A stretch of DNA of 60,690 nt, taken from a virus (Duplodnaviria; Caudoviricetes). A program made the translations under genes and the position numbers. Under the pieces are notes generated by a model that was not told the DNA's origin, did not search any database, and saw only the letters and a program-made list of their open reading frames with translations. The number at the start of each line of letters is the position of its first letter. Position 1 is the stretch's first letter. The DNA lies in IMG/VR virus record IMGVR_UViG_3300043676_000044, positions 1 through 60,690 of that record; one strand, 5' to 3'. Positions 586 through 58,098 of this stretch are shown here, piece after piece.

Positions 586-1082
586 CAGTCTTCTTCCTCA
601 GGCTCGATTACCGTAGTCGAGATGGTCTCGGTCCTGCCCGAGAACATGATGTTGACCGAGAAGGTCGGCCCCGAGGGGGCGGGGGCGAAATCTCCCTGGC
701 GGATCGGGGCGGGCTCCATGCCGCATACCTTGGTGAGCGTCTTGACCAGATCGACGCGCACCGCCGGTAGCACGCTGTCGTCCTGCAGCATGGAGAGGAT
801 TTTGGGCGAGGCTTCCAGCAGCCCGACCTGGCAATAGGTGCGGAAGCGTTCGGGGATGTTGCCGTCGCTCTCCCAGATCGACCGCTTGAGCCGGAGCAGC
901 TTGGTGATTTCCGGCCGCGCGCAGAACGCTACCGCCTGGTCGGGGGTGAGCCCGTAGCGTGCGGCGATGGCCTCGGGTTCGTGGATATTCCTCGCGATAT
1001 CGTCAGTGAACTGGTCGATCGGGATGCGCTCGATGGTCTCCCGGTCGAGGGCAACTACGGTAATCGTACCCGAGGCTGACAT
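585..1082 (-). CDS. terS: Probable terminase small subunit
   Basis: Directly upstream of terL with overlapping stop/start; HTH-like EAIAARYGLT; C-terminal FSVNIMFSG strand; ATG 1082 has GGGGAAG RBS. Confidence 0.6.
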   Translation of the reverse strand: MSASGTITVVALDRETIERIPIDQFTDDIARNIHEPEAIAARYGLTPDQAVAFCARPEITKLLRLKRSIWESDGNIPERFRTYCQVGLLEASPKILSMLQDDSVLPAVRVDLVKTLTKVCGMEPAPIRQGDFAPAPSGPTFSVNIMFSGRTETISTTVIEPEEED

Positions 1083-1098
1083 GGCTTCCCCACAAATA

Positions 1099-1147
1099 GT
1101 TGACGCAACACGGGAGAATACCGCATATAGCGCCGGATACGGTAGTT
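1099..1147 (+). promoter_or_regulatory. Putative sigma70-type promoter of the structural operon, followed by the repeated motif
   Basis: GTTGAC-N18-GCATAT, then ATACGGTAGTT at 1137-1147, in the divergent terS/portal gap. Confidence 0.5.
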
Positions 1148-1158
1148 GAGGCAAGGGA

Positions 1159-3435
1159 ATGCCCGAGGCGATCCCCGGCCGCTCGCAGTCCTCCCTGCCC
1201 GTGGGCTCCGTCGCACGCGCCGGGCCCGGCGGGTCCTATCCCAATGGACGGGGCTTGCTGCGGGTGGTCACCAGCGATGAGCTGACGCGCCGCGAGAACG
1301 AGCGGCGCATCGGCGCGGGTGCGGGGACGGCCAATAGGCTGACCAAGCCGGTGCCCGACATCGGCGCCTATATCCGCCGCCAGTGGACGATCTTCCGGGA
1401 CCACCGGAACCAGGGTAACAACCCGCTCAATAATCGCCTGCTCCGGGCGCAGCGCATGTTCGAGGGCAAATACGACCCCGAACGCCTCGCTGCGATCCGT
1501 CAGTTCGGCGGGTCCGAGGTGTACGCGCGCCTCGTCGCGGTGAAGTGCCGGGGGGCGTCTTCACTGCTGCGCGACGTATATCTCGGGCCCGACCGACCCT
1601 GGGACATCCAGGCCCAGCCCGACCCGCCGGTGCCGCCCGAGGTGCAGAAGGCGGCGATGCAGCTGGTCGCCGGCGAGGTTGCCACACAGGTGCAGGCGCA
1701 GCAGCCGATACTCCCCGAGCAGGCCAAGACCCGGCTGCAGTCGTTGCTGCATGCCGCACAGCAGGCGGCGGCCGCGAACGCCAACGACCAGGCTGACCGC
1801 GCCGCCGACGCCATCGAGGACCTTCTGGTCGAGGGGCGGTTCTACCAGGCGATGGCGGAGTTCCTGGTCGATGTGCCGTTGTTCCCGTGGGCCTGCATCA
1901 AGGGCCCGACGGTCAGGATGGTGCCGAAGCTGTCCTGGACGCCGAACAAGGACGGCAGCAAGACCGCCTCGATCGAGCGCAAGGCGCAGATGTTCTGGGA
2001 GCGGGTCAGCCCGTTTAACCTCTACTGGACCCCCGGTGTGTCCAACATCGCCGACGCCGCCATCATCGAGCGGCATCGCTTCTCGCGCACCGACATCAAC
2101 GACCTGATCGGGCTGCCCGGCTACGACGAGCAGGCCATCGCGGGGGTGCTGGAGGATTACGACCGCGGCCTCAGGGAGTGGCTGGATAGCCCCGACGCCG
2201 AGCAGGCGATCAACGAGAACCGCGAGGACCCCAACCTCAACCGCTCCGAGATGATCGAGGGGCTCGAGTATCACGGCAACGTCCAGGGCCAGATGCTGAT
2301 CGACGCGGGGATGAGCCCTAAGCTGATCAAGGACCCGCTGCGCGAGTACAACGTCCAGTCCTGGGTGATCGGCCGCTACACGATCAAGACCCTGCTCAAC
2401 CCGATGCCGACCCAGCGCCATCCCTACTATCTTACCAGTTTCGAGAAGGCCCCCGGCACCGTGGTTGGGCACGGGCTGCCGGATTTGCTGGAGGATATGC
2501 AGGAGGTGTGCAACGCCTCGTTGAGAGCGTTGGTGAATAATATGAGTATAGCTTCAGGGCCGCAGGTGGTCGTCAACGACGATAGCCTCTCCCCGGCCGA
2601 GGATGGCAACCAGCTGTATCCGTGGAAACGCTGGCATATCCAGGGCGACCTGTTTACCAACCAGCGTGAGCCGATCACCTTTTTTCAACCCCAGTCGAAT
2701 GCCCAGGAGCTGCTCTCGGTTTACACCGCGATCAGCAACATGGCCGACGAGATCTCGGCGATACCCCGCTACATCACCGGCAGTTCGCAGGGGCTGGGGG
2801 GTGCGGGGCGCACCGCCTCGGGCCTGTCGATGCTGATGGGCAACGCGGAGAAGGTGCTCCAGACGGTGGCGGCGAACATCGACGGGGACATCATGGACCC
2901 GTTGCTGAGCCAGACCTACGACCTGGTGATGATGACGGACCAGACCGGGATGCTCACCGGCGAGGAGGAGATCCGCGTCCGCGGCGTCAACGTCGCGGTG
3001 CAGAAAGAGACCGAGCGCCAGAAGCAGCTCCAGTTCCTGCAGATCACCGCCAACCCGATCGACGCGCCGATCGTCGGCGAGATGGGGCGCGCCCGCGTGC
3101 TGCGCTCGATCGCGCAGGGGCTCGGCCTGCCCGACAACGTGGTCCCCTCGGACCAGGAGCTGCAAGCCAAGCTCGATGCGCAGAAACAGATGCAGGCCGC
3201 CAGTCAGGCGATGCTTGCAGCCTCTGGCGCCGGCCAGCCGGGAGACGCCAATCCCCCCGGCGGGAAACCGGGGCAGCCGGGGCCACCGGCGGGTGGCAAG
3301 CCTGGGACGACTCCCGCCGGTGGCGCCCCGCCCGCCGCACACGCACAGGGACAGCAGGCGCCCACGCCGGGTCCCGCGCAGCTCGAAGACCACGCGCCCC
3401 GCGTCAATCTCATGCAGCAAGGGATACCGAAATAA
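1159..3435 (+). CDS. Portal protein (podovirus type) with Pro/Gly/Gln-rich C-terminal tail
   Basis: 758 aa, first structural gene; portal-like motifs (FEKAPGTVVGHGLPDLL, NNMSIASGPQ, RTASGLSMLM). Confidence 0.88.
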   Translation: MPEAIPGRSQSSLPVGSVARAGPGGSYPNGRGLLRVVTSDELTRRENERRIGAGAGTANRLTKPVPDIGAYIRRQWTIFRDHRNQGNNPLNNRLLRAQRMFEGKYDPERLAAIRQFGGSEVYARLVAVKCRGASSLLRDVYLGPDRPWDIQAQPDPPVPPEVQKAAMQLVAGEVATQVQAQQPILPEQAKTRLQSLLHAAQQAAAANANDQADRAADAIEDLLVEGRFYQAMAEFLVDVPLFPWACIKGPTVRMVPKLSWTPNKDGSKTASIERKAQMFWERVSPFNLYWTPGVSNIADAAIIERHRFSRTDINDLIGLPGYDEQAIAGVLEDYDRGLREWLDSPDAEQAINENREDPNLNRSEMIEGLEYHGNVQGQMLIDAGMSPKLIKDPLREYNVQSWVIGRYTIKTLLNPMPTQRHPYYLTSFEKAPGTVVGHGLPDLLEDMQEVCNASLRALVNNMSIASGPQVVVNDDSLSPAEDGNQLYPWKRWHIQGDLFTNQREPITFFQPQSNAQELLSVYTAISNMADEISAIPRYITGSSQGLGGAGRTASGLSMLMGNAEKVLQTVAANIDGDIMDPLLSQTYDLVMMTDQTGMLTGEEEIRVRGVNVAVQKETERQKQLQFLQITANPIDAPIVGEMGRARVLRSIAQGLGLPDNVVPSDQELQAKLDAQKQMQAASQAMLAASGAGQPGDANPPGGKPGQPGPPAGGKPGTTPAGGAPPAAHAQGQQAPTPGPAQLEDHAPRVNLMQQGIPK

Positions 3436-3635
3436 TGGCCACTGTGGAAAGCACCTCCTCGGGCAAGGACAAGTTCGTCCCGTCGGGCATGGGCAACAAG
3501 GGGCAGGCCGGCGGCAGCGGGCCTACCGGTAGTTCGCGCACCTACCCCAAGGGCGGCAGCGTCAGCACCAAGCCCGACTTCAACCCGATGAACTGCTCGA
3601 AATCCTGCGCTGAGTACAGCGTCGGCGGGGTGTGA
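3435..3635 (+). CDS. Small Gly/Ser-rich hypothetical protein (contains YPKGGSV)
   Basis: TAATG coupling to the portal; phage-like codon use. Confidence 0.65.
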   Translation: MATVESTSSGKDKFVPSGMGNKGQAGGSGPTGSSRTYPKGGSVSTKPDFNPMNCSKSCAEYSVGGV

Positions 3636-3946
3636 TGGCGAAAGTCCATCTCGGCAACCCGTATCGGGCGCCGCCCGCGTCCATCACCGCCGGCGAGCCG
3701 CTGAACCGGGTGATGGGCCAGTACGGCAAGAACGCGCCATCGGTCGCGGGCGCGCCGCTGGTGAGCATCGCCCTGGGGTCGCTGGTGCCGTTGCTCAACA
3801 CCCCACGCAAGGGCGGTCCTACCGCGATGCGCGGACTGAAGGGCGGCATCGGCCCGCGTGTGAAACAAGGCGGCCTCGGCCCCGGCAAGCTCGGCGGCTA
3901 CGGCAGCTCGCGCCAATACGACAAGAACCCGTTGGGTGATGGATGA
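3635..3946 (+). CDS. Small basic Gly-rich hypothetical protein
   Basis: Coupled ORF in the head operon. Confidence 0.6.
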   Translation: MAKVHLGNPYRAPPASITAGEPLNRVMGQYGKNAPSVAGAPLVSIALGSLVPLLNTPRKGGPTAMRGLKGGIGPRVKQGGLGPGKLGGYGSSRQYDKNPLGDG

Positions 3947-4215
3947 TCAATATCGGCAATGATGGCGTCACCGCCTGCAAGAACCTCAAGGGCAACGAGT
4001 TCTGGGACACGCTGCGCGCCCAGATCTACCGCGTCGCGGTCGAGCGCACCGATGCGGCACTCAGCTCCGACCCCGCCGCCCGCGTCGACCTTACCGCCTA
4101 TGCCCGCGCGATCCGGGACCTGTGGGTCGCGGTGGAGAGCGCCACGCTGGAGGTCAACTACCGGCAAATCGAGAAGCCCAGCCGCCCGATCATGACGAAG
4201 GCCGCAAATGTCTGA
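3943..4215 (+). CDS. Hypothetical protein, head operon
   Basis: ATGA overlap, 90 aa, helical. Confidence 0.7.
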   Translation: MINIGNDGVTACKNLKGNEFWDTLRAQIYRVAVERTDAALSSDPAARVDLTAYARAIRDLWVAVESATLEVNYRQIEKPSRPIMTKAANV

Positions 4216-5251
4216 CACGACCAAGTTCGCTCCTGCCGTCCCCGCCGCCGTCCGCCGTCAGGCGGAGGCCGCCGACGAGGCTGTTCGCCAGCTGCAGGCG
4301 GAGCAGGATGCGAACCGGGCCGAGACATCTCCTGGCGCTCCCGAGGGGACTCCATCTCCCCCCTCCGAGCAGCCGGAGAGTCCTGCCGGCTCTCCTCCCG
4401 GTTCACCACGGGACGGAGCTGCGGCGGGGCCTGCTCCCACCCCAACTCCGGGTGGACCCCAGGAGGAGGGGTGGGAGCAGCGTTATCGCACGCTAAGGGG
4501 CAAATACGACACCGAGGTGCCGACGCTGCAGAACCAGCTGCGCACCCTTGAGCGGACCATGACCGAGTTGCAGCTGCAGCTGCAGAACCCGCCGCCTCCG
4601 CCACCGTCAACTCCGGTAGTCAAGCCGGTGCCGATCTCCGACGAGGACATCGAGGCATACGGCCCGGAGCTGATCGACCGCGCCAGGAGCTGGGCGCGGG
4701 CCGAGCTGATGCCCGAGATCGAGCAGCTGCGCCACGACGTGGTCAGGGCCAACGGCACCGCCCAGAACGTCCAGTCCCAGGCGGCGATGCAGTCCGTCTA
4801 CAACTTCATGGACCAGAACCTGCCGAGCTGGAACGATATCAACACCGACCCGCGGTTTATCGAGTGGCTGCGCGGCACCGACCCGCTCTCGGGTTCGGTG
4901 CGGCAGAACATGCTGAGTGCGGCCTTCCTGTCCGGGGATGCCCGCCGCACTCTGAGCTTCTTCAGGGCATTCCAAACCGAGCATACCGAGGACCACTTCC
5001 AGCCGGGGACGACCCATACGTATGCCAATGGCAGCGCGGGTGCAGTCAGGCTCGAGGATATGGCGGGACCAGGGCGTGGTGCCCCAGTCTCTCCCGGCGC
5101 TCCTGCGACCAAGCGGCATGTAACCCAAAAGGACATCGCCGACTTTTATTCGGCCGTAACGAAGGGACGTTTCAACGGGCGCGACGCCGAGAGGCAGCGC
5201 ATCGAGCAGGAACTCCATGAGGCCGTGTACGAGGGGCGCGTCCGTAATTAA
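4208..5251 (+). CDS. Capsid scaffolding protein
   Basis: Precedes the capsid gene; disordered N-terminus, WEQRYRTLRGKYD coiled coil, C-terminal EGRVRN. Confidence 0.8.
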   Translation: MSDTTKFAPAVPAAVRRQAEAADEAVRQLQAEQDANRAETSPGAPEGTPSPPSEQPESPAGSPPGSPRDGAAAGPAPTPTPGGPQEEGWEQRYRTLRGKYDTEVPTLQNQLRTLERTMTELQLQLQNPPPPPPSTPVVKPVPISDEDIEAYGPELIDRARSWARAELMPEIEQLRHDVVRANGTAQNVQSQAAMQSVYNFMDQNLPSWNDINTDPRFIEWLRGTDPLSGSVRQNMLSAAFLSGDARRTLSFFRAFQTEHTEDHFQPGTTHTYANGSAGAVRLEDMAGPGRGAPVSPGAPATKRHVTQKDIADFYSAVTKGRFNGRDAERQRIEQELHEAVYEGRVRN

Positions 5252-5263
5252 CAGGAGCACCAC

Positions 5264-6220
5264 ATGGCTGTCGTCTATCCCGTTGCCGCAACGCCATATT
5301 CTGGCGCGCGGCCCGTCCCCGAATACTCGGGTATCTTTATTCCGCAGATCTGGTCAGGGAAGTTGATCGAGAAGTTCTATTCTGCAACGGTCCTGGCGGC
5401 CATCGCCAACACGGATTACGAGGGCGAGATCAAGAACCAGGGCGACACTATCCACATCCGCACCAAGCCCACCATCGCGATCAACGACTACCAGGCCGAC
5501 ATGCCGCTGACCGTGCAGCGCCCGTCGAGCAACATGGTCGACCTCCAGATCACGCAGGGGAAGTATTTCAACTGCGTGCTCGACGACGTGATGGAGACCC
5601 AGGCCGACCTCAACCTGCTTTCGATGTGGTCGGACGACGCCTCCGAGCAGATGAAGATCAAGATCGACACGGCCGTGCTGGCGACGCTGGACGCGGGAGT
5701 TGATGCCAACAACAAGGGCGCCACGGCGGGGTTGATCTCCGACGACATCGTCCTCGGGGTCACCGGCACGCCGGTCTCGCTGACGCCGTCCACGATCCTT
5801 GGGCATATCGTCGACCTCGGCACCGTGCTCGACGAGCAGAACATCCCCGAAACGGGTCGGTGGATGGTCTTACCTCCATGGGCGGCCGGGATGGTGAAAA
5901 AATCCGATCTGCGCGACGCCTCGATCAGCGGTGACGGCGTGTCGCTGATGCGCAATGGGCGTCTCGGCATGATCGACCGGTTCACGCTGTATGCGTCGAA
6001 CCTGCTGCCGACCGCGGTCGAGGGCACCACTAAGGCGTATCGCATCTTCGCCGGCCATCCGCACGGCCTGACCTTCGCCAGCCAGGTTTCCAAGGTCGAG
6101 ACGCTCCGCAGCGAGCAGACCTTCGGCACCCTGCTGCGCGGGCTGCAGGTCTACGGCAGCAAGGTGCTGGACGGGATCGCTATCGCCGAGCTTTACGCGG
6201 TCAAGGGGGCCGGTCCATAA
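5264..6220 (+). CDS. Major capsid protein (HK97 fold)
   Basis: FIPQIWSGKL, NTDYEGEIKNQGDTIHI, LDEQNIPETGRW, RGLQVYGSKV motifs; AGGAG RBS. Confidence 0.92.
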   Translation: MAVVYPVAATPYSGARPVPEYSGIFIPQIWSGKLIEKFYSATVLAAIANTDYEGEIKNQGDTIHIRTKPTIAINDYQADMPLTVQRPSSNMVDLQITQGKYFNCVLDDVMETQADLNLLSMWSDDASEQMKIKIDTAVLATLDAGVDANNKGATAGLISDDIVLGVTGTPVSLTPSTILGHIVDLGTVLDEQNIPETGRWMVLPPWAAGMVKKSDLRDASISGDGVSLMRNGRLGMIDRFTLYASNLLPTAVEGTTKAYRIFAGHPHGLTFASQVSKVETLRSEQTFGTLLRGLQVYGSKVLDGIAIAELYAVKGAGP

Positions 6221-6251
6221 GGGCTAACTACCGTAAGCGTAGGAACGGGTC

Positions 6252-6653
6252 ATGTCGGTATCGGTGGGCACCCCGACGATAGGGGGGCTGATCCTGGAGG
6301 CGCGGGCGATGCTGCAGGACACCCTGCAGACCAACGCCATGTCGCCGATCCAGGATGACCCGATCTACCGCTACTCCGATACCGACATGATCGCCGCGTT
6401 CAACGGGGCGATGCTGGAAGCGCGCACCAAGCGCCCCGACCTGTTCCTGCGCCTGGGGCTGCGTAAGGCGGTGCCGCGCTACACCACCGGCGACCTGGGC
6501 ACCGCCTTCCCGCTCGACCTCTCGGTCTACGACGCTTTCCTCTACTACCTCGTAGGGCGCGCCGAGATCCGGGAAGACACGTTCTCCAATGACGGGCGCG
6601 CTGTTGCGATGTTAAACAAATTCGTGAGTCAACTCATGGCGGTAGCGTCATGA
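6252..6653 (+). CDS. Probable head-tail adaptor protein
   Basis: Follows capsid gene; ARAMLQD..RYSDTDM..RPDLF pattern. Confidence 0.6.
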   Translation: MSVSVGTPTIGGLILEARAMLQDTLQTNAMSPIQDDPIYRYSDTDMIAAFNGAMLEARTKRPDLFLRLGLRKAVPRYTTGDLGTAFPLDLSVYDAFLYYLVGRAEIREDTFSNDGRAVAMLNKFVSQLMAVAS

Positions 6654-7255
6654 GCACCACCATTCCTTCGATCTCCGCGACCGGCGGGCTCGACCGCATC
6701 TACGATAGTGTCGAGAGCACCGTGCCCGGCGTGCTGCACCACTCCGTCGAGCAGGCGCTGTGGGACACGATCGAGGAGTTCTGCATCCAGAGTACGTTCT
6801 TCCGGGTCTGGGCGGAATGGGCGATGGGGGCCGGGACTAACGAGTTCGATTTCAATCCGGTCGACAGCAACACCATCGCCTTCGAGATCCTTTCCGTATC
6901 CGGACTGAGCTTCTGGGCTGCCGCGCCGATGGCGATACTGCTTGACCGCGGGCAGCCCTCCACCATCGCCCGGCAAGGCTGGGCGTGGCTAGCCTGCAAG
7001 CCCGTCTCCCTAGCCTGCTGCGGCCTGCCTTCCACCCTGGTGGATCGCTGGTATGAGGGGCTGCGCAACGGCACGTTGGCACGGTTGTTCGCGCAGCCGG
7101 CGAAACCCTGGTCCGCGCCGCCGCTGGCACAAAGTCACGGCGTGACCTATCGCGCGCGCATCCGCGAAGCGCGCGACCTCACCACGCGCCTCTACGGAGG
7201 CGGGTCGCAGCCTTTTTCCTACCCCTATTTCGCGCAGGGGAGGCGGAAGAATTGA
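6650..7255 (+). CDS. Probable tail adaptor/tubular protein
   Basis: Position; EEFCIQS..GTLARLFAQPAKPWS pattern of podophage adaptors. Confidence 0.6.
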   Translation: MSTTIPSISATGGLDRIYDSVESTVPGVLHHSVEQALWDTIEEFCIQSTFFRVWAEWAMGAGTNEFDFNPVDSNTIAFEILSVSGLSFWAAAPMAILLDRGQPSTIARQGWAWLACKPVSLACCGLPSTLVDRWYEGLRNGTLARLFAQPAKPWSAPPLAQSHGVTYRARIREARDLTTRLYGGGSQPFSYPYFAQGRRKN

Positions 7256-7683
7256 GCGATCTTTACGTCATCGCCTGCGAGCGCATGGCCAAGGCCCGGT
7301 TCAACTGGGAGGCTGATCCGGTCTACGCGATTCTGGTGGATGCGAGCTACGTGCCGGATTTCGCGGCGCACACCAGCTACGCCGATATCCCCAAATCCGC
7401 GGTGCTGCTGGCGCCGTCCCCGGCGACCAGCCCGCCGCCTACGGTAGTTGACGGCTGGTGCGTCAATAAAATGATTTATGCCACCCAGTTCGGCCCGGCG
7501 GCGGCGATCCACGCGGTGATCGTGATGCAGGCCATCGCGGGGGTGACACCCCACGACACGCCGCCCGACGATCAGCTCAGCCTCGTGGCCTATATCGACA
7601 AGGGTTACAATTTCAACGAGCAGTTCGCTACGCGCATGGCGCTCTACATCATCTGGCCCGACCAGGGGGTGTTCCGGCCATGA
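7252..7683 (+). CDS. Virion-associated hypothetical protein
   Basis: Coupled ORF in the structural operon. Confidence 0.6.
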   Translation: MSDLYVIACERMAKARFNWEADPVYAILVDASYVPDFAAHTSYADIPKSAVLLAPSPATSPPPTVVDGWCVNKMIYATQFGPAAAIHAVIVMQAIAGVTPHDTPPDDQLSLVAYIDKGYNFNEQFATRMALYIIWPDQGVFRP

Positions 7684-8024
7684 TCATCAATATCTCCGAA
7701 GTGGATATGGCGGCCCTGGATGGCGGTGGGCGCCTGGTGCCGCCCCGGCTACCTACCCCCGATGAGCCGCATAACGCGCTCTACAACGACATGATCCTCA
7801 ACGGGGTCGAGGTGGATGGCGGCTATGTCCCCTGGCACCCCGTGATTGAGGCGCGGGCGATCTACCCGTTCAGTTTCATCGCCACGAAGTTCAACACGGC
7901 ATTCCTCTGGCACGAGGGCGGGCCGACCGGCGAGTGCCTGTGCGTGCCGTATCTGCCTGACCTGGTCTGCGCACCCTGCGTTCCCGACGCGGTCGTGGTC
8001 CCCTCGGGAGGCAAGCCATGCTGA
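7680..8024 (+). CDS. Hypothetical protein
   Basis: Coupled ORF (ATGA overlap). Confidence 0.55.
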   Translation: MIINISEVDMAALDGGGRLVPPRLPTPDEPHNALYNDMILNGVEVDGGYVPWHPVIEARAIYPFSFIATKFNTAFLWHEGGPTGECLCVPYLPDLVCAPCVPDAVVVPSGGKPC

Positions 8025-8395: not shown

Positions 8396-8404
8396 GGAAC
8401 GATT

Positions 8405-47732: not shown

Positions 47733-47745
47733 TACGGTAGTTCTC

Positions 47746-50693: not shown

Positions 50694-50695
50694 GA

Positions 50696-51034
50696 TTACG
50701 GTAGTTCCTTGTTGGTGTGATAGATACGTGCCTCAAGCTCGGCGATCATCGCGTCCAGCGCGAGCTTGGGGACGTCGAACAGGGTCCAGTGCCTGGCCGG
50801 CACGATGCAGGGCGCGTCCAAGTGGTCGGTCTCGATGTGCCAGCACTCGATCGGTTTCTCAATCGCGGCCAGCTGCAACGCCGCCTCGGTATACTCAAGA
50901 TCGAACACGAAGTAGCGCAGCCATACGTCGAACGCGGCGCCGGCATCGTCGGCGTGGATTATGCAGTCCTCGCGATTGCCCTCGTTGACCTCCTTGGCGA
51001 CCTCATACTCGATGCCCACCTGATACAGGGCCAT
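50696..51034 (-). CDS. Hypothetical protein (ends ELP)
   Basis: Bounded by motif copies at both ends. Confidence 0.7.
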   Translation of the reverse strand: MALYQVGIEYEVAKEVNEGNREDCIIHADDAGAAFDVWLRYFVFDLEYTEAALQLAAIEKPIECWHIETDHLDAPCIVPARHWTLFDVPKLALDAMIAELEARIYHTNKELP

Positions 51035-51324
51035 TACGGTAGTTCCTTTATCGGGCGTTGCTCGCTGAGACCCGCGACGATCACCACCAGCTCGTTCATG
51101 ACGCTCTCGAGGCGGGCGACGCGAGCGCGGTGCTGGTTGCCCGCGATGGCCTGGGCATTATCCCCCTGCATGTAGTAGTCGCGACCGTGGGGCGCGGTGT
51201 TCGTCTGCAGGTATTCGTGCGCGTCGCTGACCATTTGCAGCGCCATGATGTAGCTATCATACAGGCTGTCGTAGCTGGTGCCGTTGAGATGCACGGTGGG
51301 GATCGCGATGGTGACAAGGGTCAT
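51034..51324 (-). CDS. Hypothetical protein (ends ELP)
   Basis: PTVHLNGT..APHGRDYY pattern; bounded by motif copies. Confidence 0.72.
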   Translation of the reverse strand: MTLVTIAIPTVHLNGTSYDSLYDSYIMALQMVSDAHEYLQTNTAPHGRDYYMQGDNAQAIAGNQHRARVARLESVMNELVVIVAGLSEQRPIKELP

Positions 51325-51352
51325 TTCGGTTGTCCTCGATTACGGTAATTGA

Positions 51353-51811
51353 TCAGGGGTAGAGATGCAGCTGGTTCGTGCTGTTGTTGATCGACCACCC
51401 GCAGACATGGCGCAGGAACCCCTGCCCGAGCAGGCCGGTCTCGGTCTGGTTTATCGACATCTCGATATTCTCGACCGTGATGCCCTTGAGCGTGAGCGCA
51501 GGAAGTATGTAGGTCTGCTCGCGGCTGACGGCGCCGTTGGCGAGGTGGAAGTTGACCATGCGGTAGGGTTTCAGGCTGCCGTCGCGGAGCCAGGCCAGGC
51601 CGAGCGAGCGCGGCAGGGACACGTCCCCCGCGCCGCTGTCGAGCACGAAGGTATGCCCGCCTGGCACGTCGCGAAAATAGAACTTGATATGCGGCGTGGA
51701 GTAGGTCGCGAAGTCCAGGTCGTAGCTGACCGGGGTGGGGGAGCACGGGAACGCGGGGGACGCGATCGCGACCGTCATTAGCGCACACGCTCCCAAAAGA
51801 AGCCGTTTCAT
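51353..51811 (-). CDS. Secreted retropepsin-like aspartic protease
   Basis: Signal peptide; FVLDSGA; LANG flap; LLGQGFL. Confidence 0.82.
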   Translation of the reverse strand: MKRLLLGACALMTVAIASPAFPCSPTPVSYDLDFATYSTPHIKFYFRDVPGGHTFVLDSGAGDVSLPRSLGLAWLRDGSLKPYRMVNFHLANGAVSREQTYILPALTLKGITVENIEMSINQTETGLLGQGFLRHVCGWSINNSTNQLHLYP

Positions 51812-51849
51812 CGGTATATCCCTATTACGGTAGTTGATAAAGAGTAAAG

Positions 51850-51951
51850 TCAGGAGTCTGCGTCTAAGACTATCAGGAAAGACAATATTCCTATGGTGAC
51901 CAGGCCGCCGCCGAGCATGGCGAACACGATCACGGGGAGCAGGTCGAGCAT
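51850..51951 (-). CDS. 33-aa membrane peptide
   Basis: AAGGA RBS; MLDLLPVIVFAMLGGGLVTIGILSFLIVLDADS. Confidence 0.5.
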   Translation of the reverse strand: MLDLLPVIVFAMLGGGLVTIGILSFLIVLDADS

Positions 51952-52171
51952 GGGTGGGTTCCTTGGGTTGGTGGGGGCGCGCCGACGACAAGGTGTCGCG
52001 GCGGGGCGGCGCATCATTCGGTAAAACCGCCGTGGATGCCCGCACAGGCGCCCTTATGGGCTGGGTGGGGGCGAGGGCGCGGCGGGGACGTTATCGGCCT
52101 GTACGGGCAGATATGGGGCTCTAGGGGACGCGGGGGGCTAGATCCTCCGATTACGGTAGTTGATGGGTAGC

Positions 52172-52384
52172 TTAGACCTGGTGCTCTGCGAGTTCGCGAT
52201 TAAACTCGACCAGCAGCCTTCCGTCGCGATCGTCCAGGCTGGCACACACCACGATCGGGTCGTCGACGCACGCATTATAGAAGCGCGCCGCGTCGAGGTA
52301 ATTGTCATAGAGGAACGTGTGATAATCCAGCGCGCCATGCTCGACCGCGCCGATGGTCACGACGAAGGGATTTTGCAGGTTCAT
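52172..52384 (-). CDS. Hypothetical protein
   Basis: GGAG RBS next to a motif copy; flanked by two copies. Confidence 0.55.
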   Translation of the reverse strand: MNLQNPFVVTIGAVEHGALDYHTFLYDNYLDAARFYNACVDDPIVVCASLDDRDGRLLVEFNRELAEHQV

Positions 52385-52431
52385 GGTGGATAACTCCAAT
52401 TACGGTAGTGCATGAAGGGTCTGGATAGTAT

Positions 52432-52841
52432 GGAAGTATGTATCACGCATCCGTGAGGATACTTCCATTCTCGTGAGACGAAAATGAGACTTTGGCGGAT
52501 TTCCAGGCGTTTTTCGCGATACTTCCATACTTCTATTACGCATTCCGTGTAACGGAAGTATTCAAACACCAAAAAACCCAGGAGTAGCTAGGGCTACCGC
52601 GATGAACTTCTGCAACGACGTAAATACACCCCAAAATGGAGGGGTCCGGTTTCACGACCTATCGTGACAAACTCAGTCTCAGATCTCATCCTGCGAGACA
52701 GCCTCGCTAGTGGCTCCTGTTTTAAAACATATAGAAGTATGGAAGTATGGAAGTATGAAAGAAAACTATTGAAAATCTGCCATAAACTGCGTCGAGATAC
52801 TTCCAACGGTGCGGCCGGCGAACACGGCGCTACGGAAGTAT
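52432..52841. repeat. Cluster of (G/A)GAAGTAT 8-mers in an AT-rich intergenic region (iteron/origin-like)
   Basis: Ten copies in both orientations: 52432, 52459, 52519, 52527, 52554, 52733, 52741, 52749, 52797, 52834. Confidence 0.8.
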
Positions 52842-53010
52842 GACCCCAAAATTGGTCGCTACGATAGTGACTGGGGGTTTTTGGCCCGGAAAGCTTCCAC
52901 CACTATATAAATTGGTCGAGTAGCGGCGGCGCAGGCGGCGCATCATTCGGTTTAATATAGTAGTGGGAGCTTACGCCCCCACCCTACCTTGTAACCACTA
53001 TAGTGATTGG

Positions 53011-53940
53011 TTAGGCAGCCTGGCCCAATGTAGTGGTGGGCGTGGTGGACTGGAACACGCGGCCGTTGAAGGGGGCGAACACGTCAACCACACCCGAAGC
53101 TGGCTCAATTACGGTAGTGGATGGGATAGGCTTGGGTCCGTCGAGCACCTCGGTTGCGCTCGCGGTCGGCTCGCGCGCCTCTACGGCAGCGATCTCACGC
53201 ATGTCCTGCGCGGTGACCGGGCGCGTGACCGGCCCGGCCTCGCCCAGCATCGCGGCGCGCGCCGCCTCCAAGGTTTCGACCTTGACCTTGGACAGGGTAT
53301 CAAACGCAGCCTTCACGTCCTGCTCGGGGAAGTTGAGCGCGATGGTGGAAAGCTCATCCATCATGGCCTTGATCCGCTTGGCGGCCTTGTCGGCCTTGAT
53401 ATCCGGGTCGCACTCGCGGGCATAGGCGGTGATCAGGTCGGGCGCGTCGAGCAATCTGCCGCGCGTCGGCAGGGCCTGCGTCGCGGACATCACGACATGG
53501 TAACGGCGCTTCCATGCCTTGCGTGCGGGCATGTCGGCGTCCTTGCCATTGAGCGCCTTGGCCAGGTCTTCGTCGGCCCACACCGCAAGTGCTGCGTCCA
53601 TGATGGATGGGAAAGCCTCGCGCGTGCCGGGTTGCATGACCACGCGCAGCTCGTTGGCGAAAGTCTTGACGCTGGCGGGAAGTTTCGCGCCGTTGTTCGC
53701 CTCGGCGACAAGTGCCGCGCCCTTGTCTACCTGTTGCGCGGTCCAGGCGTTCTGCGTGGACAGCTCGGCCAGGGTGCGCAGCGTGCCCTCGCGCGTGACC
53801 AGCTCGTTGTCGCGCTTGCCCTGCACGATATCAGCTTCTTTCTTGATATCGTCCAGTTCCATGCTGTGGCGCGACAGCGCGCCCTGAATGGCGTTCTTGA
53901 TGGTCTCCGCGATGGTCGCGGTGTCGAGGAGCATGTTCAT
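53011..53940 (-). CDS. Early hypothetical helical protein
   Basis: 309-aa ORF, AGGA RBS beside a motif copy. Confidence 0.75.
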   Translation of the reverse strand: MNMLLDTATIAETIKNAIQGALSRHSMELDDIKKEADIVQGKRDNELVTREGTLRTLAELSTQNAWTAQQVDKGAALVAEANNGAKLPASVKTFANELRVVMQPGTREAFPSIMDAALAVWADEDLAKALNGKDADMPARKAWKRRYHVVMSATQALPTRGRLLDAPDLITAYARECDPDIKADKAAKRIKAMMDELSTIALNFPEQDVKAAFDTLSKVKVETLEAARAAMLGEAGPVTRPVTAQDMREIAAVEAREPTASATEVLDGPKPIPSTTVIEPASGVVDVFAPFNGRVFQSTTPTTTLGQAA

Positions 53941-53977
53941 AGTGTGTGGGTTCCTGATTACGGTAGTTGATGGGGGG

Positions 53978-54064
53978 TTAGGCGCGGCAGACACAGAAAG
54001 AGAGTTGCAAGCGCCACACTCGCAGAAATCTAAGCCCGCCGACCTTGCGATAACGTAGGGTCAT
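53978..54064 (-). CDS. 28-aa basic peptide
   Basis: TAATG coupling; MTLRYRKVGGLRFLRVWRLQLSFCVCRA. Confidence 0.45.
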   Translation of the reverse strand: MTLRYRKVGGLRFLRVWRLQLSFCVCRA

Positions 54065-54291
54065 TAGCGGGCACCCATGGCGTAGGCGCGGATGGCTTTG
54101 CTGCCGTGATACATCGCGCCCATGGCGTGGCTCGGCAGGTTTCCGGCGATGCAGCCGCCCTTGATCCTGCGGGCGCCGTTGGCGACGCGGGCCGGGCAAC
54201 GCTTGATTACGATGTTCGCGGGGGGCGCAACCACGTCGCGCTTGCCCAGCGTGGGGGCGAGTAGGAACTTGGCAGAGATCGTGGCTCGCAT
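54064..54291 (-). CDS. First early gene, small basic protein
   Basis: GGAG RBS; directly downstream of the hammerhead and a motif copy. Confidence 0.6.
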   Translation of the reverse strand: MRATISAKFLLAPTLGKRDVVAPPANIVIKRCPARVANGARRIKGGCIAGNLPSHAMGAMYHGSKAIRAYAMGAR

Positions 54292-54315
54292 GGGTCACTC
54301 CGATTACGGTAGTTG

Positions 54316-54366
54316 AAGGTTTCGGGTTCGCACCCATCGTCAGCATGGCGAGCAGCCATGGACCTT
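54316..54366 (-). ncRNA. Type III hammerhead ribozyme
   Basis: AAGG-UC / CAUGGC-UGCUC-GCCAUG / CUGACGA-U / GGGU-GCGA-ACCC / GAAA-CCUU: all core nucleotides and three perfectly paired stems. Confidence 0.88.
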
Positions 54367-54745
54367 GCGTGGCGCGGCCTTCCGCGCAACCTACTGCCTC
54401 CGCATGGTGGGTCCATGCATCTACGGGGTCGAGTGTCCGCACCTGCTGCGCTTGTTAGACGCATGGATGCTTAGGCGCCCCTGCCGGCATCATGTGTGCC
54501 GCGTTGCTGCGTCGGGGTGGATCTCATAAGGGGGTGGAAGGAACAACTACCGGTAGTCAGGGGGGCTGGGGGGCCGGGGGGAGTATTGGACAGGGGTGGG
54601 GGGGTGCCTAGGCCGCGGTTAGGTAAGTCACTCACACGACCAGCACTTTTTGAATACTATGTCACCGCCACTACGTTAGTGACTGGGAATGACCACTACA
54701 TTAGTTTTTCTATCTCCACGCCCCCACCCCGCCCAGCAGTATCTC

Positions 54746-54802
54746 TTGCAGACTCGGGGGCACGGCCTTATATAACAATCATGTTTACGGTAGTTATCCA
54801 CA
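54746..54802 (+). promoter_or_regulatory. Sigma70-like promoter, motif copy and one DnaA-box consensus upstream of the HTH gene
   Basis: TTGCAG-N17-TATATA; TTTACGGTAGTT 54784-54795; TTATCCACA 54794-54802; second -35 TTGACG at 54818. Confidence 0.55.
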
Positions 54803-54873
54803 AGCAGTGCAACTAGATTGACGCACGCGGCTTTAGGCGTGTTCTATTCACGAGCTACTAGAAGGGGGTCCAC

Positions 54874-55320
54874 ATGGCGCAAAAGAGTACGCCCAGTCCA
54901 TCCACCCGGTCGCGCAGCCGCAAGGCCCCGCCGCCGGCCAACACCAACTACAATAGCCTGGCTAAGCGCGACAAGGAGCCGTTGCCTGAGATCGACGAGG
55001 ATCTGGCTGAGCGCCTGGTCGAGCTGCTCGCCGCGATCACCGAGACCACGCGCCCGGCGACCAAGAAGGCGCGCCTGCTCGCGTTCATCATCGAGATGGA
55101 CCGGCTCAAGCAGCTGTTCCCTACCCACCAGGTGGTCGCTGACCATATCGGCTGCTCGGTCGACAATATCCGCACCGCGCTGAACGACAGCATCAAGCGC
55201 AAGCTGGTGACCCAGGAGCTGGTGTTTGTTCCCGGTAACATCGCGCGTCGCGAGAGCACCACGCGGCGGCACCGCTACGCACCAACCAGGAGATTAGCGC
55301 CCGTTACTAGTCTGCTGTAA
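54874..55320 (+). CDS. Winged-HTH DNA-binding protein (repressor candidate)
   Basis: FPTHQVVADHIGCSVDNIRTALNDSIKRKLV. Confidence 0.7.
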   Translation: MAQKSTPSPSTRSRSRKAPPPANTNYNSLAKRDKEPLPEIDEDLAERLVELLAAITETTRPATKKARLLAFIIEMDRLKQLFPTHQVVADHIGCSVDNIRTALNDSIKRKLVTQELVFVPGNIARRESTTRRHRYAPTRRLAPVTSLL

Positions 55321-55504
55321 TACTGATAAACGCCCAAAATAAAACTAAATAAAACGGCTTTAAGGCGTGATAAACCGTACCCGACGGGCAGTCGTTAAAA
55401 ATGCGTTATTCTGGCTCGCTCCATTAATCTCCATCTAGACATTTGTCAGGAAGTATGGGGCGAGTCATTTTTACTGTGGCCAGGATGTCACACCGGGTTT
55501 TCGT

Positions 55505-55540
55505 TTGACACCCCCTGACTCGGGATTTAGATTACGGTTT
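55505..55540 (+). promoter_or_regulatory. Sigma70 promoter with a motif variant over the -10 box
   Basis: TTGACA-N17-TAGATT; ATTACGGTTT overlaps the -10. Confidence 0.65.
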
Positions 55541-55571
55541 AATCATGGGGCTTCCACGAAGGAATACCGTA

Positions 55572-55910
55572 ATGCGCCAGCGGCCGGTCCAAACCTCCTC
55601 CCCTCCCGCGAGTCGGGTCCAGTCTGGAAATGCAGCAGACGCGCAACCGCTACTTCACATGGCCGTGCGCTCGCCGCCGCGGGCGGTGTCGCAGATCGGG
55701 CCGCCGGTCCCCCGCGTCCGCCGTGCCTCCGAGATGAAACTGGCGATAGATCGCGCGCTTGAGGCGGTCGGACGGCTGTCGGACCAGCTGGGCGATGGCG
55801 GGGGCGGCATGAGCGATCAGGAGCTGGTTCAGGTCGCGCAGGGGTTCGTGCGCGCCGTGGCGACCGCCGGGACCCGCCTCGCCTGTATCATAACGCCAAT
55901 AAAGCTATAA
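55572..55910 (+). CDS. Hypothetical protein
   Basis: AAGGA-ATACCGTA-ATG start after a strong promoter. Confidence 0.5.
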   Translation: MRQRPVQTSSPPASRVQSGNAADAQPLLHMAVRSPPRAVSQIGPPVPRVRRASEMKLAIDRALEAVGRLSDQLGDGGGGMSDQELVQVAQGFVRAVATAGTRLACIITPIKL

Positions 55911-56019
55911 CTCTCCGTCGCGTACGGTAAGTAAGCTTTCAAGCTTGCCAGCTGTGGCGGAAGTGTATTAGATCGCCCCACCCCGTCGTGCATACGCGCA
56001 TGGCGTGGAGAGGGGAACC

Positions 56020-56637
56020 ATGAAGGTTGTCGTGCTGGCGTCGCAGAAGGGCGGCGCGGGGAAGACCACGCTGACCGCGCATCTCGCGGTCGAGGCGGCG
56101 CGGCGGGGTTCCCGGGTCGTGGTGGTCGACCTCGATCCGCAGATGGGGCTCATGGAATGGTGGAACGCGCGCGCGGCTGACACACCGGTGGCTGCCCAGT
56201 TCGCCGCCGCCGACCTCGCCGCCGGCATCGCCTCGCTGCGGGAGAGCTTCGATTTCATGTTCATCGACACGCCGCCGGCACTCGGAGACAATATCCGCCT
56301 CGCCATGGCCCATGCCGACCTCGTGGTAATTCCCGTGCAGCCCTCGCCCAACGACCTGCGCGCCGTCGGCGCCACTATCCGCATGGCCCGCGAGGTGCGT
56401 AAGCGGTTGCTGTTCGTGCGGAACAGATCGAACCCCCGGCACGTCCTTGCCAGGGAGACAGCAAGATTGCTGGCGGCGCACGGGCCTTCCGCTCATGGTG
56501 ATATCGGGGACCGCACCGACTTCAAGGCGGCGATGGCTGAAGGGCTGACCGCGTCCGAGATCAATCCATGGTCGCGGTCGGCGGTCGAGGTCGCCGCCCT
56601 GTGGGATGTCGTGGCAGAACAGCTAGGAGGGGTTTGA
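56020..56637 (+). CDS. parA: Short ParA (type Ib/ParF-like) partition ATPase
   Basis: SQKGGAGKTT, DLDPQ, FIDTPP, ADLVVIPVQPSPNDL. Confidence 0.93.
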   Translation: MKVVVLASQKGGAGKTTLTAHLAVEAARRGSRVVVVDLDPQMGLMEWWNARAADTPVAAQFAAADLAAGIASLRESFDFMFIDTPPALGDNIRLAMAHADLVVIPVQPSPNDLRAVGATIRMAREVRKRLLFVRNRSNPRHVLARETARLLAAHGPSAHGDIGDRTDFKAAMAEGLTASEINPWSRSAVEVAALWDVVAEQLGGV

Positions 56638-56867
56638 TGGCCAAGACGCCGATAAAATTATCAGATGGCCTGGTGAATGCCGGTAAGCGCCCCGCGCTCG
56701 GGCCAACTACCGTAGGTCGGGTCTATCCTATGATGCTCTCGGTCCGCGTCGATCCGGCGTTGCTCGACGAGGTGAAGGACCTCGCGCATGCGCGGCGGCT
56801 GAAAATCCAGGATGCGGTGGACGAGATGATGCGCAGCTGGGTGCGGACCAACGGCTCACGGCGCTAA
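56637..56867 (+). CDS. Ribbon-helix-helix partition partner (ParG-like)
   Basis: Coupled to parA; LSVRVDPALLDEVKDLA..IQDAVDEMMRSW. Confidence 0.75.
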   Translation: MAKTPIKLSDGLVNAGKRPALGPTTVGRVYPMMLSVRVDPALLDEVKDLAHARRLKIQDAVDEMMRSWVRTNGSRR

Positions 56868-56891
56868 ATGCAAGCAAGTTTGCCGGTAAGA

Positions 56892-57401
56892 TTACGAGGA
56901 TGGGCGCCCCCCGCTCCCCATTCTGGCCTGGGTCGCGGCCTTCTGCGCCCCCAGGTAGGCCAGCATCCGCCGTTCAGCCGCAATCGCGTCCCAAGGGAGT
57001 GGTTCCTGAGCCTCTTTTTTTATTTCTAACACTTTAGTCGTGCGATCCTGCTGGTCAGAGCGCCGGCGGGGCCAGGGGCAGCCGCGAGCGGTGGCGGTCG
57101 GGCGGTCGGGGGCCGGTTTGAGTAGGATATACAGGTTCGAGGTCTGCTCCGTGCGCCACTTTCCTACGCGCCGTCGCCGTCGCATCCAGGTTAGCAGGCC
57201 GAGCGCACGGGCGTTGTTGAGGGCACGTCCCACCGTCGCGGTGTGGCAGCCGACACGGCGGGCTATGGCGGCGTGGGAGGGGAAAAGAAGCCCTCCATAG
57301 GGCCGGAATGTGGGTAAAGCCCGTAAGACGAGAAATTCTAGCCGGGTCATGTTACCGGCCAGCAGTTCTGCATGGGCTGCGGCGACCAGGGCGGCGCTCA
57401 T
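56892..57401 (-). CDS. wHTH plasmid replication initiator-like protein
   Basis: LFPSHAAIARRVGCHTATVGRAL..GLLTW.RR..QTSNLY, resembling alphaproteobacterial plasmid Rep proteins. Confidence 0.7.
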   Translation of the reverse strand: MSAALVAAAHAELLAGNMTRLEFLVLRALPTFRPYGGLLFPSHAAIARRVGCHTATVGRALNNARALGLLTWMRRRRRVGKWRTEQTSNLYILLKPAPDRPTATARGCPWPRRRSDQQDRTTKVLEIKKEAQEPLPWDAIAAERRMLAYLGAQKAATQARMGSGGRPSS

Positions 57402-57715
57402 GGAGCATCCCCCCGATCGGGAATGTCATCACCGAGGAAGAAAAACTCGGTTTTTCCGTGGAAATTGGTGCGCCAGGTAAGCAAACCGTGAGCTTTTGCT
57501 CGCTTTCGGGCCTCGAAAACCGTCCTTTCACACCAGTTTTCGCCCTCTATTAAGGCTTTATCGGACGGATTTGGGTGCCCGCTTTTGACTAAAAATCGCA
57601 GTTTTTCAAGGATATAAGTGTGTTTATAGGTCAGAATACGGGCTTTGAGGGCTGTTTCCAGCCCCTCGTTCCATGCTTTGAACGCTAATGACGGGGGTTG
57701 CACTCCGCTCTCCAT
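57398..57715 (-). CDS. Second, shorter Rep-like wHTH protein (lower GC)
   Basis: PSDKAL..CERTVFEARKRAKAHGLLTW parallels the downstream gene. Confidence 0.6.
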   Translation of the reverse strand: MESGVQPPSLAFKAWNEGLETALKARILTYKHTYILEKLRFLVKSGHPNPSDKALIEGENWCERTVFEARKRAKAHGLLTWRTNFHGKTEFFFLGDDIPDRGDAP

Positions 57716-57848
57716 CGAGCGGCCCCGCGAAAGATTACATCGCCCCCACCACGCAAAAAAAGACTTGCGTGGACGCCAACTACCGACAACTATGGACCTT
57801 AGTGATGGGTCCTGTTTCGGAGCGGAAGACTCCGGGTAGGTTTGTGGG

Positions 57849-57882
57849 GGTGGTTCTCTTTCGGGGGGCCACCTTTACTTTT
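57849..57882 (+). terminator. Intrinsic terminator of a putative antisense RNA
   Basis: GGTGGTTCTC/GGGGGCCACC stem (needs G-U pairs, so + strand only) followed by TTTACTTTT. Confidence 0.65.
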
Positions 57883-58098
57883 GTACGCCCTTGGCAACAT
57901 CGCCGTCGTGAACCTTGCGCGCATCCGCGCCGCGCTGCAATTCCTAATGCTGTCTCAATGGAACCATGCCATCGCGATCAGGGTCACCAGGAGCAGCAGC
58001 AGTGGCTCGAGCAGTCGCGCGGGGCGCATCCTGTTCTCCCGTCACGGTAGTATGCTATTAGCAATTACCGTAATTGGGATCAACACGAGGAGGGGGTC

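Follow-up and report, generated by a model that had tools for sequence, protein, structure and literature searches.

In Streptomyces phage phiC31 and in P1, a plasmid prophage, some 15-20 operators scattered through the genome answer in each case to a single repressor; those of phiC31 are conserved inverted repeats, palindromic and intergenic, and those of P1 are bound by C1. Cluster A mycobacteriophages use stoperators, whose site sequences are said to differ between related phages (PMC6550527). In L5, Bxb1 and TipsytheTRex these are more than 20 genome-wide 13-bp sites in promoter regions and short intergenic spaces, their orientation correlates with transcription, and the asymmetric site is bound by a monomer using a helix-turn-helix (HTH) and a 'Stoperator' domain (PMC9283540). 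Cluster K mycobacteriophages carry start-associated sequences (SAS), which are asymmetric 13-bp repeats in 11-19 copies and one orientation at the translation starts of a subset of genes, with a consensus, GGGATAGGAGCCC, that contains the Shine-Dalgarno (SD) sequence and is conserved across the cluster; about half have imperfect inverted repeats of variable spacer just upstream (ESAS), and their function is given as unknown, with a role in translation suggested (PMC3203893). CtrA boxes in alphaproteobacterial phages are host-factor sites clustered in one large intergenic region (PMC9437464). Here we analyse a near-palindromic word, RAYTAC-N-GTARTY, that recurs throughout a phage genome of 60,690 bp (IMG/VR record IMGVR_UViG_3300043676_000044; 'the window' denotes this whole stretch). 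Palindromic words of this kind are a property of the whole phage family. We tentatively read the word as the set of operators of a phage regulator controlling transcription genome-wide, a reading to which we give somewhat less than an even chance.

The core TACSGTA occurs in 44 exact copies, against a mean of 1.75 (sd 1.37, max 6) in dinucleotide-preserving shuffles, none of which (0/100) reached 44. A preliminary description of this DNA, made from its letters alone, had listed 43 cores, of which all the coordinates are correct and to which one overlooked copy, at 39341, has to be added; its expectation of 3-4 cores was if anything too high. It went too far in stating that most cores have AAY..RTT flanks, as the strict 13-mer AAYTACSGTARTT is found in only 3/44 copies (the sites at 12871, 14302 and 58063). 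AYTACSGTART matches 20 copies and RAYTACSGTARTY 15, and RAYTAC-N-GTARTY with at most one mismatch, which gives 47 sites, serves as the working consensus. The six near-variants named earlier are all one-mismatch or W-centre copies. Five lie at gene junctions: one-mismatch copies at 37944-37956 (minus strand; AACGGTAATT on the plus strand), 49304-49316 (minus, ending in the ATG of 48872-49306) and 55530-55542 (next to a sigma-70-like promoter match), and W-centre copies at 40287-40299 and 44594-44606 (both minus). The sixth, with a W centre, lies at 38385-38397 (minus) in the first codons of 37980-38405, where it reads TTVI. A scan of IMG/VR with CAACTACCGTAATC returned 118 stretches, with one match apiece among the matches listed.

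When the copies are oriented so that the centre is C, their consensus is (c)AAC-TAC-C-GTA-(A/G)T(C/T). Symmetry holds at positions +/-1 to 3 and +/-5, and in intragenic copies also at +/-4 (C/G); asymmetry is limited to the centre, +/-4 and +/-6, and to the junction copies described below. The word is a near-palindrome rather than an asymmetric 13-mer. Like the stoperators of cluster A it exceeds 20 genome-wide sites (44 exact cores, 47 sites with one mismatch allowed). Unlike them it is near-palindromic, its orientation inside genes is unbiased (15:9), its candidate regulator is modelled as a single winged helix rather than an HTH plus Stoperator domain, the host and phage lineages are unrelated, and the system is known here from sequence. 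Because the asymmetric site is missing, we do not count the word as a member of the stoperator family, though it would be stoperator-like in its working. What survives of the earlier proposal of a stoperator-like system is a genome-wide, phage-specific word of more than 40 copies that is enriched in short intergenic gaps and co-oriented there; its placement in ribosome-binding regions is not what a stoperator would predict. The operators of phiC31 and P1 differ in having fewer sites, no tie to start codons, and unrelated proteins and hosts. CtrA boxes are likewise short symmetric words in the same host class, and the TTAC-N7-GTAA of some relatives shares its geometry with TTAA-N7-TTAA; the words here are, in contrast, phage-specific and genome-wide. 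A CtrA-box reading was rejected, since the word of the window is different and its sites are dispersed.

Copies inside genes number 24, against 2.94 +/- 1.70 (max 8) in 200 shuffles that keep the proteins and the codon usage, an approximately eight-fold excess. The copies inside genes are translated as TTVG or TTVI by way of the rare codons ACT and GTA, and the earlier suggestion that they force rare codons is thus borne out by the codon-preserving control. Fifteen run with the gene and nine against it, which is not a significant bias. The nine opposed copies alone exceed the shuffle maximum of eight for both orientations combined, which argues for selection on the double-stranded DNA word itself. 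The opposed copies lie in the terS-like gene (585-1082, minus) at 606-618 (plus; GATTACCGTAGTC), in 7252-7683 (plus) at 7437-7449 (minus), in the gene of a 2390-aa protein at 25471-25483 and 30808-30820 (both minus), in the minus-strand primase-helicase gene at 34165-34177 and 34937-34949 (both plus), in the SNF2 helicase gene at 39338-39350 (plus; the overlooked copy), in the PolA gene at 43047-43059 (plus) and in the minus-strand ATPase gene at 50382-50394 (plus). Co-oriented copies on the plus strand occur in the tail-fibre gene 8414-10633 (8764-8776, TTVG), in 16079-18694 (16534-16546), in 22466-25351 (23779-23791), in the 2390-aa gene (26949-26961 and 27549-27561, both TTVG) and in a ribbon-helix-helix gene (56705-56717). 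Those on the minus strand occur in the terS-like gene (1053-1065), the primase-helicase gene (36062-36074), the PolA gene (42475-42487 and 43558-43570), 45375-45950 (45912-45924, TTVI), 46440-47732 (47204-47216), 48872-49306 (49121-49133) and 53011-53940 (53107-53119, STTVIEP). The peptide STTVIEP stands in two unrelated proteins, the terS-like one (word at 609) and the 309-aa early protein (53110); it is encoded both times by a copy of the word with similar flanks, with centre G once and centre C once.

The remaining copies are placed very differently from chance. Twenty of the 44 cores are not wholly within coding sequence, whereas non-coding DNA makes up 5-10% of the genome, and a site lies immediately upstream of 17/68 genes against 2.7 under random placement. 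As 17/20 extragenic copies are co-oriented with the next gene, the orientation bias stems from these extragenic copies only. The preliminary description had orientation flipping with gene direction; its count of 32, 9 and 2 agrees with ours (32 co-oriented, 9-10 opposed, 2 ambiguous), but the rule does not extend to the copies inside genes. Eighteen junction copies lie 0-55 nt 5' of a start codon, 13 of them within 18 nt; they either directly precede the SD or separate it from the ATG. All 18 are co-oriented, with a central C on the coding strand (the junction variants at 44594 and 40287 have T/A), and an asymmetric extended consensus is common to them, ATCAACTACCGTAATCGGAG / ATCAACTACCGTAATCgGAG, whereas intragenic copies are more symmetric (AACTAC-S-GTAGnn). 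The centre-C rule could be a constraint on mRNA rather than on protein. Sites are densest in the leftward early operon (47-54 kb) and also occur at intervals within long genes.

On the plus strand, junction copies stand at 6226-6238 (3' of the major capsid gene, 16 nt 5' of the start at 6252), 12871-12883 (start 12897, 16 nt on), 14302-14314 (start 14313, 1 nt on), 21030-21042 (overlapping the stop codon of 20819-21040), 21067-21079 (start 21080, 3 nt on) and 58063-58075 (start 58099, 26 nt on); the second, third and last are strict 13-mers. Those on the minus strand stand at 47730-47742 (between the SD and ATG of 46440-47732, gap 0), 48654-48666 (start 48642, 14 nt on), 49500-49512 (start 49485, 17 nt on), 50694-50706 (the ATPase start 3 nt on, the site's TAA being the stop of the upstream gene), 51032-51044 (gap 0, with a TAATG overlap), 51338-51350 (start 51324, 16 nt on), 51823-51835 (start 51778, 47 nt on), 52398-52410 (start 52384, 16 nt on) and 53956-53968 (start 53940, 18 nt on). 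The intergenic copy at 52149-52161 (minus) has GGAGG directly 3'. At 1135-1147 (minus) a copy occupies a 76-bp divergent gap, 55 nt from the terS-like start and 14 nt from the portal start on the opposite strand, and is ambiguous in orientation; two further intergenic copies are 55562-55574 (plus), with a weak left half, and 55920-55932 (minus), which has weak flanks and lies upstream of parA, opposed to it.

In placement the word is closest, by analogy, to the cluster K SAS with their upstream inverted repeats. Both are tied to start codons in one orientation (here 17/68 genes against 2.7 at random, and 18/18 junction copies co-oriented), and both show variable spacers, here in relatives of the window. 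Unlike the SAS, the word occurs 44-50 times, half of these inside genes, and usually stands apart from the SD; its sequence is not GGGATAGGAGCCC, and it changes completely between related phages.

We typed 14 other genomes or records of the family, six full relatives and eight further genomes or records, and found an own, strongly enriched palindrome in 13/14; G016 gave a weak CTATAG signal only. The dominant palindrome is GTTACCT-N3-4-AGGTAAC in Rhizobium phage RHph_TM27A (TM27A) and in a 60.5-kb Bradyrhizobium contig, TTACTCC-N0-1-GGAGTAA in G001, CCACTAGCTAGTGG (21 copies) in G002, AACTATAG in G003 and G020, CTACTAC-W-GTAGTAG in G004, GTTACC-N5-6-GGTAA in G005, ATCACTAC-N-GTAGTGAT in G008, TCCCTAC-N0-2-GTAGGGA in G011, TTTACTAC.../...GTAGTAAA in G012, CACTAC-N0-2-GTAGTG in G013 and TTACGCC-CSG-GGCGTAA in G014. 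The placement is shared: the assigned word lies just 5' of predicted starts 3-12 times above random placement in 15/15 genomes (window included), with 31%-83% of the copies outside coding sequence. Such words occupy the junction 3' of the capsid gene in many of 80 IMG/VR loci, and a site is conserved across orthologous genes at gp298 (6/8), gp309 (4/6), the ATPase (5/12) and the gene after the capsid (5/13); the orthologous-junction table shows no site before the capsid, scaffold, terS-like or exonuclease genes. Related phages have analogous start-associated words, but the word itself differs between them.

The words are also rare outside phage contigs in the two bacterial assemblies holding relatives that we compared. 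In a 2.3-Mb assembly, 20/20 matches of CACTACNGTAG fell on a 59-kb phage contig. In an 8.7-Mb Bradyrhizobium genome the strict GTTACCT-N3-4-AGGTAAC had no match; with the 9-mer CGTTACCTC, then used in its place, 8/37 matches fell on the phage-sized contig of 60.5 kb. Literature searches (supplements aside) yielded no description of such words in this phage group and nothing on RHph_TM27A. The earlier statement that no such system had been described accordingly stands for this phage group within the literature searched, but comparable systems have been published for other phages. The kind of system is already known; what is new is that the site is symmetric and tied to start codons, that relatives have replaced the word wholesale, and that there is a candidate protein.

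That candidate is a 148-aa protein (54874-55320, plus), the first gene to the right of the divergent non-coding stretch 54292-54873. Nowhere else in the genome are half-sites as dense (8 per 600 bp against an average of 1.9), and this gap is a candidate for the main operator region. The gap contains two cores and three variants. One core lies at its left edge (54302-54314, minus), 13 nt from the doubtful open reading frame (ORF) 54064-54291, and the other (54783-54795, minus) 79 nt 5' of the start of the 148-aa gene; among the variants is one with a two-base centre at 54545-54558 (AACTACCGGTAGTC). The protein is a member of a small, nameless family of 31 clusters, and it matches no Pfam or NCBIfam family. 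An AlphaFold2 model from 30 aligned sequences (mean pLDDT, the model's per-residue confidence, 77) shows a helix-turn-helix and a beta wing. Foldseek gave weak matches, all winged-helix (TFE, MarR-type, the DnaD N-terminal domain and SmtB), and VIA-align gave Z 8.8 to ribosomal protein eS19 and Z 8.5 and 8.1 to the T4 MotA N-terminal domain, followed by MarR and Crp types. Z values at that level allow only a shared fold to be claimed. The model is a single winged helix.

A profile search with the winged-helix alignment found seven loci. Homologues of the 148-aa protein occur in the window, G003, G004, G008, G011 and G020, all with CTAC/ACTA-type words, and none was found in TM27A, G001, G002, G005, G006, G007, G010, G014 or G015, all with other words (the word types of G007, G010 and G015 come from 20-kb loci only). 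The co-occurrence is 6/9 for CTAC/ACTA-type words against 0/9 for other words, a hypergeometric probability by hand of about 0.005, ignoring relatedness; grouping by capsid identity differs from grouping by word and homologue. In a further assembly there is a truncated match to the homologue, and the phage contig there is enriched in TACTGTA and TACGGTA. No homologue was detected in G016 (77% complete). The predicted recognition helix is not the same in phages whose outer half-sites differ, and it is identical in G003 and G020, which have a common word. In other relatives the gap that separates terL from the early operon encodes different small HTH proteins, and TM27A and the Bradyrhizobium contig, again with a common word, have a common 242-aa protein at that position that is not in the other seven genomes compared. 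The preliminary description had named several possible binders, and this one is plausible by its fold, its gap position and its co-occurrence. A 73-aa HTH protein (20819-21040), also named, was rejected as the binder, since relatives encode nothing equivalent at that position.

We prefer a DNA operator for several reasons. Inside genes, selection acts on the double-stranded word in either orientation; its core is symmetric, and the copies in the window are unable to fold; each phage has a word of its own, and the occurrence of a DNA-binding protein follows the class of word. RAYTAC-N-GTARTY would then be the operator of a phage-encoded, sequence-specific DNA-binding protein, most likely bound as two subunits, one per half-site. 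The 148-aa winged-helix protein adjoining the divergent control gap would be the best candidate, and it would be expected to bind AACTACCGTAATC or GTAGTT duplexes. Occupied sites at the heads of cistrons and within long genes could block host RNA polymerase or hinder the downstream gene, genome-wide at once, so that the phage is kept silent as a ParA-partitioned plasmid prophage or its early genes are shut off in the lytic cycle. We infer the binding, the subunit number, the repression and the biological purpose alike.

A number of observations weigh against such a DNA operator. The junction copies lie within the ribosome footprint, at 0-18 nt from the start, and are asymmetric (C at -4, A at +4, centre C 18/18), which fits an element acting as RNA. 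Spacer length varies within one genome: 0, 1 or 2 bases in 6, 13 and 3 copies in G011 and in 2, 5 and 9 copies in G013, and 0 or 1 base in 6 and 16 copies in G001, with variable spacers in G005 and G012 as well. Such variation is not usual where a rigid dimer binds and is more in keeping with a stem-loop, and in several relatives the hairpin energy is well under that of shuffles. Occupancy of the junctions is conserved between genomes only in part. G013 (complete) and G012 (97% complete) have CTAC-type words with no homologue of the 148-aa protein detected, and the association of word and protein is consequently not strict; moreover, the genomes in that comparison are not independent of one another. 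Partition or integrase genes were not detected in most relatives, and one good site of the window (56705-56717) falls within the presumed maintenance module.

Several of these points would suit a start-associated RNA element, that is, a site on the mRNA at which a phage RNA-binding protein would repress or enhance translation, much like T4 RegA, or a stem-loop masking the SD, the intragenic copies being a by-product or a second use. The junction copies do stand near the start codon, 5' of the SD or between SD and ATG, with C at the centre in 18/18 on the coding strand and asymmetric flanks (ATCAACTACCGTAATCGGAG), and in TM27A, G001 and G008 the 3' arm of the palindrome is the SD itself; the similarly placed SAS of cluster K, for which a role in translation is suspected (PMC3203893), offer a parallel. 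However, no hairpin is possible in the copies of the window. Their folding energy equals that of shuffled sequence (-2.25 against -2.11 kcal/mol for junction copies, -4.09 against -3.95 for all copies), and the hairpin reading was rejected for the window. Terminator-like matches number 11 against 11.5 expected, and Rfam 15 gave no match at gathering score in the window. Nor would an RNA role explain the nine opposed intragenic copies, far over expectation, it is not obvious what single-stranded RNA would gain from a palindromic core, and protein-family scans of the window (PHROGs and Pfam over its 77 ORFs) recognised no RNA-binding protein. We regard an RNA element as unlikely, though it deserves a place beside the operator we prefer. 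The variable spacers of the relatives occur alongside the absent hairpin potential of the window, and no single explanation so far covers both.

A phage-specific promoter or start-site element, in which the junction copy would be the transcription start of a very short, SD-only leader read by a phage RNA polymerase, sigma or appropriation factor, appears improbable to us. The early region does have one strictly co-oriented copy per gene, with a 17-20-nt asymmetric consensus ending just 5' of GGAG, a layout reminiscent of T7-type promoters, and the words vary between relatives as the promoters of phage polymerases do. G004 encodes an ECF-type (extracytoplasmic function) sigma factor, and the model of the candidate protein reaches a borderline Z of 8.1-8.5 to the T4 MotA N-terminal domain. 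Yet no phage RNA polymerase was recognised by PHROGs or Pfam among the 77 ORFs, the 2390-aa protein being proline-rich with an HExxH motif and no sequence match to solved structures, and a start codon follows five junction copies by 0-3 nt, which leaves no space for a leader. The sites lack a conserved -35 or -10 partner at a set distance, sigma-70-like matches number 3 against 4.7 expected in 44000-60690, and a promoter would not be looked for in 24 intragenic copies, nine of them antisense, or in a symmetric core.

For 46500-56400, 17 sequencing runs are listed, all of them DNA contigs and none RNA. We compared contigs from four metagenome runs with 40001-60000 (40 of 353 differences are listed). 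Related strains differ by cassette swaps (48643-49523 and 51309-51367) whose joints lie about 10-60 nt from sites: the joint at 48643 is near the site 48654-48666, those at 49523 and 49525 near the site 49500-49512, and a skip from 51309 to 51367 spans the site 51338-51350, where the replacement sequence of one strain has a W-centre copy. Such joints, and the real stem-loops of the relatives, are what might be seen if the words were structural or selfish palindromes with no dedicated regulator, akin to repetitive extragenic palindromes (REPs), spread by recombination or a nuclease and serving as stabilisers of mRNA ends or as linkers in cassette exchange. REPs are genome-specific and intergenic, as the words are here. 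Nevertheless, the PHROGs and Pfam scans show no REP-associated transposase in the window, the copies there do not fold, intragenic copies are maintained despite their rare-codon cost, and plain linkers need no 13 conserved bases; we hold such palindromes to have only a slim chance of being the explanation.

The window also encodes a plasmid-type partition module. A ParA-type ATPase (56020-56637, plus) scores 174 bits to NF041546, slightly under the cut-off of 180, and is followed by a 76-aa ribbon-helix-helix protein (56637-56867, plus), on weak evidence its likely centromere-binding partner. In the plasmid prophage N15 the centromere sites are scattered, and with one site inside the ribbon-helix-helix gene and one upstream of parA the word could in principle be a dispersed centromere or genome-organising site for this pair. 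We judge that very improbable: equivalent words occur in relatives that have no ParA, the sites are dispersed and tied to gene starts rather than clustered by parA as in a type Ib partition centromere, and flanks are weak in the copy that precedes parA.

As to what the operators we favour would be for, prophage silencing may be the purpose, given the partition module, an integrase encoded by the relative G003, and family members found within isolate genomes or, in Bradyrhizobium isolates, as contigs of 60 kb. The plasmid prophage of the preliminary description is supported to that extent by ParA and its ribbon-helix-helix neighbour; since most relatives have analogous words but show no lysogeny genes, however, silencing of a prophage cannot be the general explanation, and a shut-off of early genes in the lytic cycle is as likely. 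Extending the argument, it is possible, if rather doubtful, that soil podophages of Alphaproteobacteria and their neighbours, as one large family, have a control cassette that can be swapped: a small DNA-binding protein, encoded between terL and the early operon, with its own genome-wide palindrome at cistron starts. Exchange of the cassette would re-address the genome and set the immunity or expression group, and stoperator-type silencing would have arisen here independently, on the basis of a dimer. On this view single sites, lying as they do in the ribosome-binding region, might gate both transcription and translation. Should the operator reading hold, one protein at about fifty addresses would control expression in widespread, unstudied phages of soil and rhizosphere. 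In the evolution of the family this address has been rewritten repeatedly, which would give a natural series for the co-evolution of regulator and site, and phages could be sorted into immunity or expression groups by sequence alone. It would further provide compact, orthogonal operator-repressor pairs for high-GC bacteria and, beside mycobacteriophages, a second independent example that bears on what start-associated repeats do.

The window is a complete podophage genome related to RHph_TM27A. It is an entire genome record on a single contig of 60,690 bp, and as the large terminase gene spans both of its ends (1-585 and 59712-60690, minus), the record must be closed circularly, or permuted, at an arbitrary point. 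The closest named relatives are Rhizobium phages RHph_TM27A/B, TM29 and TM3_14A (portal identity 52%); megablast of 1-20000 and 40000-60690 against phage records gave no match at the nucleotide level, and a single-query locus search with the ATPase found no relative. By capsid there are at least 596 relatives in IMG/VR, and 42 loci lie in bacterial genomes. A single 465-kb contig of a Pseudolabrys assembly (L117, L118) has two capsid matches of equal score about 62 kb apart with the same k-mer profile, which suggests a tandem or duplicated prophage.

The PHROGs and Pfam scans resolve three modules. The virion module, of podophage type, occupies the plus strand, and among its products are an SU10-type portal (1159-3435), the major capsid protein (5264-6220), tail fibres, an internal virion protein, an SLT-domain protein and the 2390-aa protein (25348-32520). 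The minus-strand replication and early module at 33-54 kb holds a DUF927 primase-helicase, an SNF2 helicase, VRR-NUC and PD-(D/E)XK nucleases, PolA, a MoxR-like ATPase, a VWA metallopeptidase and numerous small ORFs. A small mixed module at 54.9-58.9 kb holds ParA, the ribbon-helix-helix protein and an HTH_36, replication-initiator-O-like protein (56892-57401, minus). A tRNA scan of the window found none, and three conserved proteins of unknown function, searched by sequence against solved structures, had no match under E 0.5. Just 3' of the winged-helix gene, the AT-rich non-coding stretch 55320-55560 has the best sigma-70-like match of the region (TTGACA-17-TAGATT, 55505-55533) as well as a one-mismatch copy of the word, and may be an origin or a promoter for the partition genes.

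Long proline/alanine-rich linkers and a zincin-like HExxH motif mark the 2390-aa virion protein, which has no sequence match among solved structures. Its C-terminal third matches PHROGs annotated as DarB-like antirestriction, and by BLAST it groups with a 360-aa protein at 36839-37921. The MoxR-like ATPase and the VWA/DUF2201 metallopeptidase (46440-47732, 49521-50693) are conserved as a pair in 6/7 genomes compared. The ECF-type sigma factor of G004 (152 aa; L099:13058-13513) is encoded between a gp141 homologue and the SNF2 helicase and has no counterpart in the window. Acb2/Tad1-like and Tad2-like anti-defence genes are present in relatives at L097:11714-11929 (G003), L094:16860-17084 (G002) and L104:12847-13122 (G005). 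Finally, an HNH_3 endonuclease gene (58973-59698, minus) adjoins the terminase gene, between 58099-58953 and terL. In a related strain (run X2) a contig links 58961 to 59758 through 241 different letters, and the HNH_3 gene is thus a variable insert.

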